From: Raja brachyura
Taxonomy: Eukaryota
Assembly: GCA_963514005.1 (NCBI GenBank)
Contig: OY740783.1
Coordinates: forward strand, 83,266,001 to 83,330,000
Length of the DNA: 64,000 bases
Direction: 5' to 3'
Below are positions 38,563 to 55,613 of this stretch, piece after piece (positions within the stretch are counted from its first letter, which is position 1; each line of letters opens with the position of its first letter). The position numbers were made by a program, and so were the translations under genes. The notes beneath the pieces were generated by a model, which saw nothing but the letters and a program-made list of their open reading frames with translations, had not been told where the DNA came from and searched no databases.

Positions 38563-38728
38563 CTGCCCAGTATCTTGCTAACGCAGCCGTGGCTCACTCT
38601 GAGCTGTCTGGAGATATCACAGGGTCTCACTCCTTGGTGGGCCAGTTCCACAATTCGCTGCCGGACAACATCTGGGAGAGGGCGGCCATTCACAAACACA
38701 CCCCCAAGCTGATTCACCCCGCCATGCC
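38563..38728 (-). CDS. pax5: Pax5 exon 2, paired domain N-terminal half
   Basis: [55 protein letters not shown]. tatacag acceptor, gtaaga donor, 166 nt as in the Pax2/5/8 family. Confidence 0.98.
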
Positions 38729-51400: not shown

Positions 51401-52800
51401 CTGTGACGAAAGTTATTGGCAAATCCATCCCCTTCAGTCAAAATGCGCGATAAAAAAACATGGTTTCAAATTGCCGATAAAACGTTTAGAATTGTTCAAA
51501 CGACGAATATTAACGAAAGAAAATAGGAGTAAATAAAAATTCAAAGGAAATTTTAATTCGGTTTCATTTTCTTAAGCGGCACTCGGCTGCACAAAAACAA
51601 GAGCGTACATCTGAATGATCACAGGTCTGCAGCGGGAGACGGGCCCGAAGATCTTCAGAGCAAAGACCAGAACAGTTAAAATAAACATTTTAGCTATTTT
51701 TGCGTTTTGTCTTTTGAAAATGCTGTGATTTGAACATTTCATGCTAATATTCATCCACAAAATCGAACGGCTCTGTTAGTCGTTAACGAAGCCCCAAATC
51801 CTAAATTCACATTTCGAGTTTTTGTTTCGAAAGGGTGGCGGCACTAAACTTAAGGGCAGTAGTTGGGTTGGGGTGGGGGGAGGTACACATTCACCCACAG
51901 GTCACGGATTGTCTAATAATCTCCTAAAGAGAAGCCAGAATTAGCAATTTCCAGTATCTCCCCACCCGCAATGAATCAATCGAACTGTACACATATTTGG
52001 AAAAAAATGCAGACGGGGCACCGAAGTCAGCCATTGGACACATTTTAACTATCTTTATATAGCGAAAGAGCATAAAATAGAACTCGGTAAATATCCTCGA
52101 TCAACGAGAGAACAAACGGACCGTCGTGTACAGAGACAATCAAGAGCTCAGCTCCATTCCCTCGCACACGAAAGCACCACTTTGTGGCGTATTGCAGCTT
52201 TAAATTCTAACAATTTCGGGTGCAGGTCCGATTCCTACAGCTTTCTGTTGTACAGTGACAACCATCGCGTAATAAACATTAAACATTAAACTTTTGCAAT
52301 TAAACGTGAAGTGGTTTTGTTTTTTTAAATAAATGTAACTGATTGCACCTCAGAAGTAACCCCTGACCTATCTTCACGCCACTCGGAATCGCCCACAAAG
52401 AGTTTTTTTATAAAGTTACAAAGCTGATATTTGGTAGGGACACTAATCTGAACCCAGTGGAACCGAACACCTTCTGCAACCCGGACACTGCGGACAGTCC
52501 TTCGCCGTGAACCGTACAGGGAGATATGCTTTCCCTTGACTTCTGTTGAGCGTTCGTCCTAGGTTTTCACAGTGCATTGCATTTACTTTGAGCAGTTTCC
52601 AACACTTGAATTTTCATTAAGCCTCACTTGATTAATTAAAAGTGTTCACTTTTTTAAAAACAAAGTGTCTTAAGTCTTGATAGTCTTTTAAAGCACTGGG
52701 TACTGTTTAATTCTACAAGTAAATACGGGACTGTTTCCAATACAGCCGCTTCATGCTTTCGAACTATTTGCACATTTCACAGAAAAAAATATAAACCTAC

Positions 52801-52840
52801 CTGATCGGATTCCCCTGATGGCGCTACCGTTTTTTTCCAT
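52801..52840 (-). CDS. pax5: Pax5 alternative first coding exon 1A (MEKNGSAIRGIRS + phase-1 G)
   Basis: Minus strand reads AGT-ATG-GAA-AAA-AAC-GGT-AGC-GCC-ATC-AGG-GGA-ATC-CGA-TCA-G then gtaggt donor. Strong Kozak (A-3, G+4). 40 nt, phase 1, fits exon 2 (G+GG=Gly, then HGGVNQ). EKN...R.G resembles mammalian exon 1A MDLEKNYPTPRTSRTG, and the upstream leader resembles the human 1A 5'UTR as recalled. Confidence 0.85.
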
Positions 52841-52901
52841 ACTAGTTTTCGTATTGCGAATCCTTTGTGAAAAGACTGGAAGAAAAGTTTCTATTTTTCG
52901 C

Positions 52902-52944
52902 TGTGTGTGTGTGTATGTGTGTGTGTATGTGTGCGTGTGTGTGT
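52902..52944. repeat. Interrupted (TG)n/(CA)n microsatellite inside the exon 1A leader
   Basis: Seen directly. Confidence 0.95.
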
Positions 52945-53022
52945 TGTCGGCTCCGGATAATTTGACTCTTCCGCTACCCCGTCGCGTCTTTGGTGCTGCC
53001 CATTGATCCGAAACTAAACGTT

Positions 53023-53097
53023 TTAGGTGGAGAAAAGGCTCTGAACAAACCGTGAAATGATTAAGGAACTAAAAGAGCTCGCTACATGTGAGATCAT
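53023..53097 (-). other. Upstream ORF in exon 1A leader, 24 aa MISHVASSFSSLIISRFVQSLFST*
   Basis: Read directly: ATG at 53097 to TAA at 53025-53023. Translation is not demonstrated. Confidence 0.6.
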
Positions 53098-55613
53098 GTC
53101 CTGTTCGCTTTAAAAAAATCGCCAAGTCCCTTGACGCAGCGAAAAGAAAGTAAAACTCTCACATCTGCCGGACAAATCACTCCTACCTATCGCTTTCTGT
53201 AACTTTGTGGTTGTCTCTTTCGCCTCCAGTCTCCACTGTGCGAATGTTTACAACGCCTGGCATTTACAAATACTTGCACTAGAGGATCTGTATGGATGGG
53301 GATTCTGAAACACCGCATCACACGCCGATTCAAGCACCACTAACATTGAATAATTGAAGTCCTTTCTCGACATTTCACTCTCTAACTTCCTTCCTCAAAT
53401 TGGCACAAAAACATTAGGTAGTTTTATCTGTACCCGGGGAGACAATTGCAGACACCCCCTCCTACTCTTCCCCACCAAGAAGCGACACCTTGTAGCGCAC
53501 AGTTTTTTCCGATTTCTTCTTAAATACGGCGCTGCTGTTTACAATTTTGTGTCGATTTGACTCTTATTGGGAGTGGGAACATACAAAATAAAAGCGCTCA
53601 TCATCCGTACCCCATCGTCCTACATTTGTACTCATTTGACATTTTCTAATATAAAATAAACTTTGCTCCAGTTATTGTCGCATTTTTAAAAGAAAATATT
53701 GACTGATTACTGTATCCATGGTTAGAAATTGGCGGAGCGAATGCACTCGGCCATATTTCTGTCTGCAACTTATGTTGAAATTATATCAAAATTGGAGCAC
53801 GCAAAATGTGCAGCATTTGCCAGTGCCGGCGGAATGGACTTTTCCACAGGCAGTCAGATGTTCATTTCCCGCTGCACTTAACCTTTAACCGGTGACCGCA
53901 ATACAACTTTACGGAAGTTTTAAATACTAATTGATTCGTGTCAATGGGAAGGTCTCGTTGAAATTCAAGTACCAACTTCAAATACCAAGTCAAGTGAATT
54001 TACACGATTCCGCCTGTCTCATATATACGTTTGCAAGAACGCAAATGAATTAAATAAAACCTGAAGTTACAGAAACCTGGATCACTTTCACAACGCCTGC
54101 AGCTTTGGTTTCCTCCATATATTTTACAGATTAACACCAGCACCACATTAGGTCAAATTCATATTTAGGCAATACATGGTCCTAGCTTTTGTTTGGGTAT
54201 GACCACACGAGAAAGCTCAAGGCATGATTTACAGCATAAATTCAATATGTTTTTTTTTAACATGTTGTTTGTTTGTTTTTAAAGCCTGAATAACCGGTAT
54301 AAAAGTCCATGGTCAAAAACTACAATTAGTGTCTTAATCCTAACGGATTTCAGTCCGAAAAAATGAATTATCCCGTTTTGCAGAAATGTTTGGAGTGTCT
54401 AGGATGTTCAGTTTAACGAGTTTAAGAAGTGACCTCGGCTTACAGGTGAAATTTAAGGAACATAAATTGCCCAATATAATGTTGTATTAGATACAATATA
54501 ACCTACATGGAGGAAAGTGTCGCCAATGTTTCGTCATATAAGCATATATTCAGAACTACTGTAATAAAATACTTTTGTTTATGTTTTTCATCATATATTT
54601 AAATGTTTGTGTTCTTTCATAAACCAAATCAGGTGAGTTTATTTAGACAGGGTCGCTTTTTACACATGGATTACCTGAAATGCTTTAATAAGTAAATTAA
54701 TACCTTCAAATTATCATGAAGAACTTTTGGACAACTGACGTAGAATTGGACTGTTTGCAAGTTAATGAAATAACTAAATATTCACATGAAAATGTATGCA
54801 CTATATCAAATACACGCATTCAGATCACCGGGCCAAATTTGGAAATTTTGATAAATGCAAAGTACCTAAACATCTATTTAAACTTACATCTTTAAATATC
54901 GGAAGTAATCATTCCAAATAATATGAAATAATGTCAATTCCTTTGTTTTATGATCATTCGCAATTCTATTAAAGACTAATTCTACCTAATGCACAAGGTC
55001 GCTAATATTTTATTTTTGGATAAGGGGCAATTTAATGAAGTGGGGGAAAATGTTTACTTAAAAGTTAAATTGGACCCCTCGCAGTTAACCCGGAACATAA
55101 TAAATAATTATGCCTAGTGCAATTTTATTGTGAAACAAATACCCTATGTTTCTCCATAGTTGGACGCTTCCACGGTGTACAAACAAATCCTGATCCTGAA
55201 GCATTCTTAGATTTTTGGTTCTGCTCACAAAACACGAAAATTAATTTGATCAAGTAAATATATAGAGAATATTTGTAATAAGTTATTCAATTCCAAAATT
55301 CTTGAAGTTAATTTTTAATTTGGTATTCGATATATGTGCCATATTTCTTTAATTGTGATTACCTGTTTTAGCTAAATATTCAAAATATTACTTTGCCAAT
55401 GTCTGAAATGTGATTAGTAATAGGTTGTGCATCATTAGCCCACACTGCATTAAATATATCGTGTATACTAACTTGACAGATATCAGAGTGCAGTAATTAT
55501 ATGAAACCATTGCCATCGCTGCTCCTTTCAATTCACTAATATGTTGTGTGAAACAGGCCCCACAGCTAACCTATGCGAGCATTATTTATAGTTGTATATT
55601 TAATGTTGGCTTC

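Follow-up and report, generated by a model that had tools for sequence, protein, structure and literature searches.

The window, by which we mean the whole stretch of 64,000 nt of Raja brachyura DNA that was analysed, carries Pax5 on its minus strand. Exon 2 has its best match in the solved paired domain of Pax5, and exon 5 agrees with the Pax5 proteins of skates at 100% identity. The two coding exons on which the analysis draws most are:

52801..52840, minus strand: coding portion of exon 1A of Pax5 (13 codons and 1 nt), with a strong start context and a splice donor at 52800
38563..38728, minus strand: Pax5 exon 2 (paired box), the control for silent change

Judged from its sequence, the exon at 52840-52801 is Pax5 exon 1A, because a RefSeq Pax5 isoform from skate (P0123) begins with exactly its peptide, because it lies at a matching distance from exon 2, and because 6 of 12 terminal residues are common with mouse exon 1A. 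The distance to exon 2 is 14,072 nt (14.07 kb) here compared with 13,184 nt (13.18 kb) in human and 12,675 nt (12.68 kb) in mouse, and the likeness to the exon 1A and promoter P1a of human, mouse, and chicken extends to the chicken 'TSS' primers, which fall on the conserved block described below. Two of the four aligned contigs of relatives (X2 and X4) splice exon 1A to exon 2, their loose ends at 52800 continuing into the beginning of exon 2. Cartilaginous fish have exon 1A and splice it, and RefSeq models with a 1A-type N-terminus exist for skates, rays, sharks, a chimaera, bichirs, sturgeons, frogs, and amniotes. A passage of PMC6132355 states that PAX5A first appears with mammals. Contrary to that passage, exon 1A is as old as the jawed vertebrates, as the RefSeq models already contain.

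Two further observations concern the protein ends that this exon may give rise to. An acceptor AG at 41228-41227 (window 41228-41116) would connect exon 1A, in frame, with the exon 1B leader and put 22 residues ahead of the 1B start; the catshark RefSeq isoforms P0136 and P0145 have such a 1A-1B hybrid, and the vole model P0058, of ab initio type, has a similar join. Upstream of its ATG, the main Pax5 frame stays free of stops for 76 codons (53068-52841) and contains no further ATG there, and a near-cognate start in this interval could yield a longer Pax5 protein. Protein searches with residues 1-42 of this open extension gave no homologue among longer or near-length proteins, which counts little against the longer product.

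The initial annotation had described three ATG-stop pairs in the exon 1A leader, and all three are indeed found there:

53023..53097, minus strand: uORF1, 24 codons with a TAA stop, out of frame with Pax5
53082..53087, minus strand: nested ATG-TAG in a weak context, its ATG missing from chicken
52974..53003, minus strand: uORF3, 9 codons, ATG absent in chicken

None of them shares the frame of the main ATG at 52840, and an N-terminal extension of Pax5 from an upstream ATG was rejected for this reason. uORF1 is a closed ATG ORF lying 5' of the main ORF and unfused to it, with 182 nt between its stop and the main ATG. A purine at -3 combined with G at +4 is found at the main ATG only; uORF1 has just the purine, uORF3 just the G, and the nested ATG neither. 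The leader contains three ATGs, compared with 3.8 expected at intron density and 0.71 expected from dinucleotide shuffles of the TG-poor leader (P 0.015), and since the two nulls disagree, the excess depends on the null that is chosen. The length of uORF1 is unremarkable as well: a closed ATG ORF of at least 24 codons occurs in 18% of the shuffles, and because 89 of 222 intron windows of leader size contain one, a 24-codon ORF by itself is no more than chance. Four short leader motifs were found in none of the 162 Pax5 proteins searched.

The leader contains two neighbouring features that behave differently among the relatives of the skate:

52957..53107, minus strand: conserved block where Pax5 exon 1A begins, likely comprising the core promoter and the first transcribed letters
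52890..52947, minus strand: CA microsatellite of the exon 1A leader that varies from relative to relative

Among the 23 runs listed, 20 contain part of the stretch, and 4 of these 20 (X1, X2, X4, and X6) were aligned, organisms E-J being left out. None of the 20 is on record as RNA, which carries no weight in either direction. The aligned contigs come from four related organisms; X2 and X4 are spliced, X6 is probably DNA, and X1 is a contig without demonstrated splicing. Throughout 52957-53107 no difference is listed in any of the four relatives, third positions included. Variable sites number 0 of 151 in the block and 18 of 152 in the flanks (P 4e-6), which hold two indels in addition. With the post-hoc choice of edges allowed for, only 5 of 200,000 random placements reach a run of this length. 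Differences close to the ends of pieces or within the CA repeat are omitted from the comparison, so that the block can be taken as secure in X4 only below about 53078-53093 and in X6 only above about 52997; the unlisted letters number 2 in X1, 8 in X2, 8 in X4, and 2 in X6. Sampled-word shares of about 17, 17, 15, and 12 for X1, X2, X4, and X6, against 12.9 for an intact block, are consistent with an intact block. A second short conserved patch lies at 53295-53336 (42 nt, 4 differences in X2), with a 105-nt stretch below it that gives no alignment.

The strongest conservation of the leader had been said to coincide with uORF1. The block does include uORF1, and its true extent is 151 nt, about twice the length of uORF1, from 10 nt above the uORF1 ATG to 66 nt below the uORF1 stop. 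The 46 letters of the block that belong to neither ORF are equally fixed (P 0.009). The block has one match in G000 and is single copy, and it lies at a developmental regulator.

This pattern bears directly on the possibility that uORF1 encodes a 24-residue stalling peptide or micropeptide, with amino-acid selection on top of nucleotide constraint, which we regard as very unlikely. The peptide is identical in all four aligned relatives, as such selection would have it, and so is the nucleotide sequence: neither silent nor replacement changes are seen in uORF1. About 17 silent sites of uORF1 are unchanged, while exon 2 drifts freely. In the exon 2 control (the first 9 full codons, counted by eye) there are silent differences in 5 of 9 codons in X4 and 2 of 9 in X2 with no replacement, whereas no uORF1 codon is changed among the 18 securely covered in X4 (P 0.002 versus exon 2) or among 23 in X2 (P 0.07). 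The control comprises these 9 codons only, and among the codons of exon 1A the listed changes amount to one replacement, in X2, with none silent. Since peptide selection permits silent change, a peptide alone cannot explain the block.

A more distant comparison was provided by three chicken primers taken from the S2 Table of PMC4301804 and from PMC4253623, which jointly cover 54 letters. Each has one match in the window, with 2, 2, and 3 mismatches, and none has a match in 100 shuffles. Skate and chicken are identical at 48 of the 54 letters, and the element is ancient, recognisable from skate to chicken, and belongs to exon 1A, as had been proposed. The uORF1 ATG and TAA are both retained in chicken, which is known from the primer footprints alone, the frame between them lying outside the footprints; the chance that one given ATG and TAA survive at this level of identity is 0.49. 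Identity is 21 of 23 letters within uORF1 and 27 of 31 elsewhere in the footprints (P 1.0), and with differences at 2 of 23 and 4 of 31 letters, respectively, there is no step in conservation at the start or the stop. The best sign for a coding frame is that both chicken changes inside uORF1 fall at third positions (P 0.11); one is certainly silent, and the second is silent if the unseen first codon letter is kept. The conserved cassette of three uORFs put forward in the initial annotation does not hold, because chicken keeps one of the three ATGs and lacks those of the nested pair (change at 53086) and of uORF3 (change at 53003). The conserved micropeptide fares no better, with third positions as fixed as the rest in the relatives and no step at either end of the frame; the human version given in the initial annotation would have four consecutive residues changed, which counts against the peptide.

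Catalogues of conserved upstream frames point the same way. The PhyloCSF-based catalogue of Mackowiak 2015 (PMC4568590; 27-nt minimum) has no ORF in the mouse Pax5 5'UTR, with the transcript carrying the exon scanned; its Pax5 ORFs are C-terminal only in mouse and likewise in human among the entries listed, and uORF1 is missing from both on the same terms. ESUCA (PMC7530721) covers chicken and human and could list uORF1, and PAX5 is absent from its main text. With the conserved-peptide uORFs of these two studies uORF1 shares a closed, unfused ATG ORF whose start and stop are kept in a distant species; it differs from them in having no excess of silent change among relatives and no step at its ends, and in being absent from the tables searched.

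Where transcription of exon 1A starts can be approached from several sides. The chicken primer pair spanning 53107-53008 is labelled 'TSS' (PMC4301804 S2 Table), and RNA of exon 1A is detected with the primer at 53027-53002 (PMC4253623). In the published chicken work, the tag sits 0.3 kb upstream of the start, and the amplicon next to it is named '+0.2 k'. If this amplicon is the 'TSS' pair, as the table suggests, the chicken reference start would lie between 53106 and 53028, a range of 79 places of which 9 are above the uORF1 ATG, the distances being rounded to 0.1 kb. The chicken reference start is thus probably inside the block and below the uORF1 ATG. Several chicken exon 1A starts have been reported, going by a title in the reference list of PMC4301804.

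The 5' ends gather at the upper edge of the block, although contigs cannot show starts: the spliced X4 contig ends at 53108-53114, and in the mouse model a first exon of 323 nt less 46 coding nt leaves a leader of about 277 nt. Spliced X2 and X4 include the uORF1 ATG and X1, X2, and X6 reach further upstream, with the same reservation about contigs; the ATG is therefore present in some RNA. An upstream ATG lying above the true start had been named beforehand as fatal to the uORF proposal. This is likely the situation at the chicken reference start, subject to its rounded distances, and it is not the situation in X2 and X4. We take the current human reference transcript to start below both upstream ATGs. 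X2 extends about 1.9 kb above the block (53336 and up), collinear where seen, and this reach may reflect a far upstream start, an RNA from the opposite strand that overlaps here, or the presence of DNA in the run.

A motif scan of the start region with consensus sequences gave three candidates:

53108..53118, minus strand: T7A3 run, TATA-like, varying at 53108, 53109, 53111, and 53112
53085..53090, minus strand: E-box consensus, overlapping the nested ATG and lost in chicken
53066..53072, minus strand: initiator-like consensus with A at 53070, one of 11 hits in 900 nt

At 11 hits in 900 nt the initiator-like motif is common and is a candidate only. The TATA-like run above the block and the motif at 53070 would fit a start inside the block; the variation of the run among relatives and the loss of the E-box in chicken count against a start-site role of the block. 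An exact EBF palindrome does not occur in the window. The human exon 1A leader reportedly holds a repressor. For comparison, PMC2504290 calls the human 1A promoter TATA-containing.

Taking these lines of evidence together, we consider it fairly likely that this deeply conserved, non-coding block acts as the region in which the B-cell promoter starts transcription, with the ATGs as its passengers. This reading is preferred because the block is fixed while exon 2 drifts, because chicken shows no step at the frame, and because of the 'TSS' label, the position of the 5' ends, and the absence from the catalogues. As in a start-site element, nucleotide identity is high over a long evolutionary distance with no codon pattern, at a single-copy site beside a developmental regulator. 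Transcription of exon 1A would begin at multiple places across and above the block, with the main start inside it, below or just above the uORF1 ATG. The letters would be fixed one by one through bound factors or the initiation machinery, so that the ATGs of the block would be passengers of this letter-by-letter constraint and not the start of a selected peptide. uORF1 would then be present only in transcripts starting at or above the block edge, in which it may at most lower the translation of Pax5A, whatever its peptide.

Several results count against this start-site reading. The edges of the block lie within 10 and 17 nt of those of the cassette, and with the limits of the initial annotation itself the contrast is 0 of 124 against 18 of 179. 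The three ATGs exceed the dinucleotide null mentioned above, which speaks against passengers, and so does the uORF1 ATG in the spliced RNA of X2 and X4. Conserved non-coding elements at developmental transcription-factor genes resemble the block in being single copy, near-invariant, and free of a codon pattern, here at a Pax gene; the block differs in spanning the start region of one alternative promoter and in its 151 nt. The bar for ultraconserved elements is 200 nt, and the block is shorter.

According to one alternative, uORF1 is a selected uORF whose effect is independent of its peptide, and the choice of start site, with long transcripts carrying it and short ones skipping it, would tune the dose of Pax5A; the nested ATG and the uORF3 ATG would be lineage-specific. 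We consider this unlikely, though it is the alternative to which we give most weight. It draws on the uORF1 ATG and TAA retained in chicken, on the purine at -3, on the uORF1 ATG within the spliced contigs X2 and X4, on the several chicken starts, and on the 182 nt below the stop as room for reinitiation, which can follow a uORF given enough spacing. Against it, the survival of these six start and stop letters in chicken has the even chance given above, and a peptide-independent uORF leaves the fixation of all 151 letters unexplained. Moreover, the uORF1 ATG is only 11-17 nt from the contig end in X4, and start codons so near the 5' end are poorly used. The human Ribo-seq ORF table of Sandmann 2023 (6 files) has no PAX5 row, and its coverage of B cells is doubtful: PAX6 and POU2AF1 are present as controls, and since ATF4, EBF1, IKZF3, and CD79B are absent too, the absence of PAX5 is weak evidence. 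In a broader proposal, the frame of uORF1 is translated, dates back to the first jawed vertebrates, and sits exactly at the exon 1A start region, where a small shift of start site would switch it in or out and set the dose of the B-cell isoform PAX5A, possibly via its peptide; this is in our view distinctly improbable.

In the ATF4, GCN4, and CEBPA type of leader, several short uORFs stand above a dose-sensitive transcription factor. The leader of exon 1A is similar in this respect and different in that two of its three ATGs are absent in chicken and that no uORF overlaps the main start.

Constraint indifferent to codon position is also what a 5' leader RNA element would produce, with protein-binding sites or structure acting on pausing, on splicing to 1B or to exon 2, or on translation. 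RNA covers the lower portion of the block both in relatives and, according to PMC4253623, in chicken. Nevertheless, we give an RNA element hardly any weight, as conservation reaches letters likely above the start and the folding of the block is no better than that of shuffles (z +0.90). The four sub-stretches gave z values of +1.44, -0.07, +0.01, and -0.74, and Rfam returned no match with E up to 1. A structured leader RNA was rejected on the lack of folding beyond shuffles and of an Rfam family, covariation being inapplicable to invariant sequences.

Within the literature searched, we found no paper on the conservation of the block to cartilaginous fish or on its ATGs, and none linking Pax5 exon 1A with an upstream ORF. 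The passages on the PAX5 UTRs in the review PMC9456430 treat the 3' end only. There was no match in one small file of the Raj 2016 supplement, which is probably not the ORF list, or in two files of Crowe 2006, searched with no control. In a metagenome scan with a 20-mer, all 26 hits end at the pattern and none is Pax5.

The block is real and ancient, the peptide and cassette readings are not supported, and uORF1 may have a role that depends on the start site. As a claim for a micropeptide the finding is weak. PAX5 is dose-sensitive in B cells and in leukaemia, according to PMC6132355, and its upstream control is called poorly defined in a passage of PMC9456430. The block retained from skate to chicken would give the B-cell promoter a core small enough to test.
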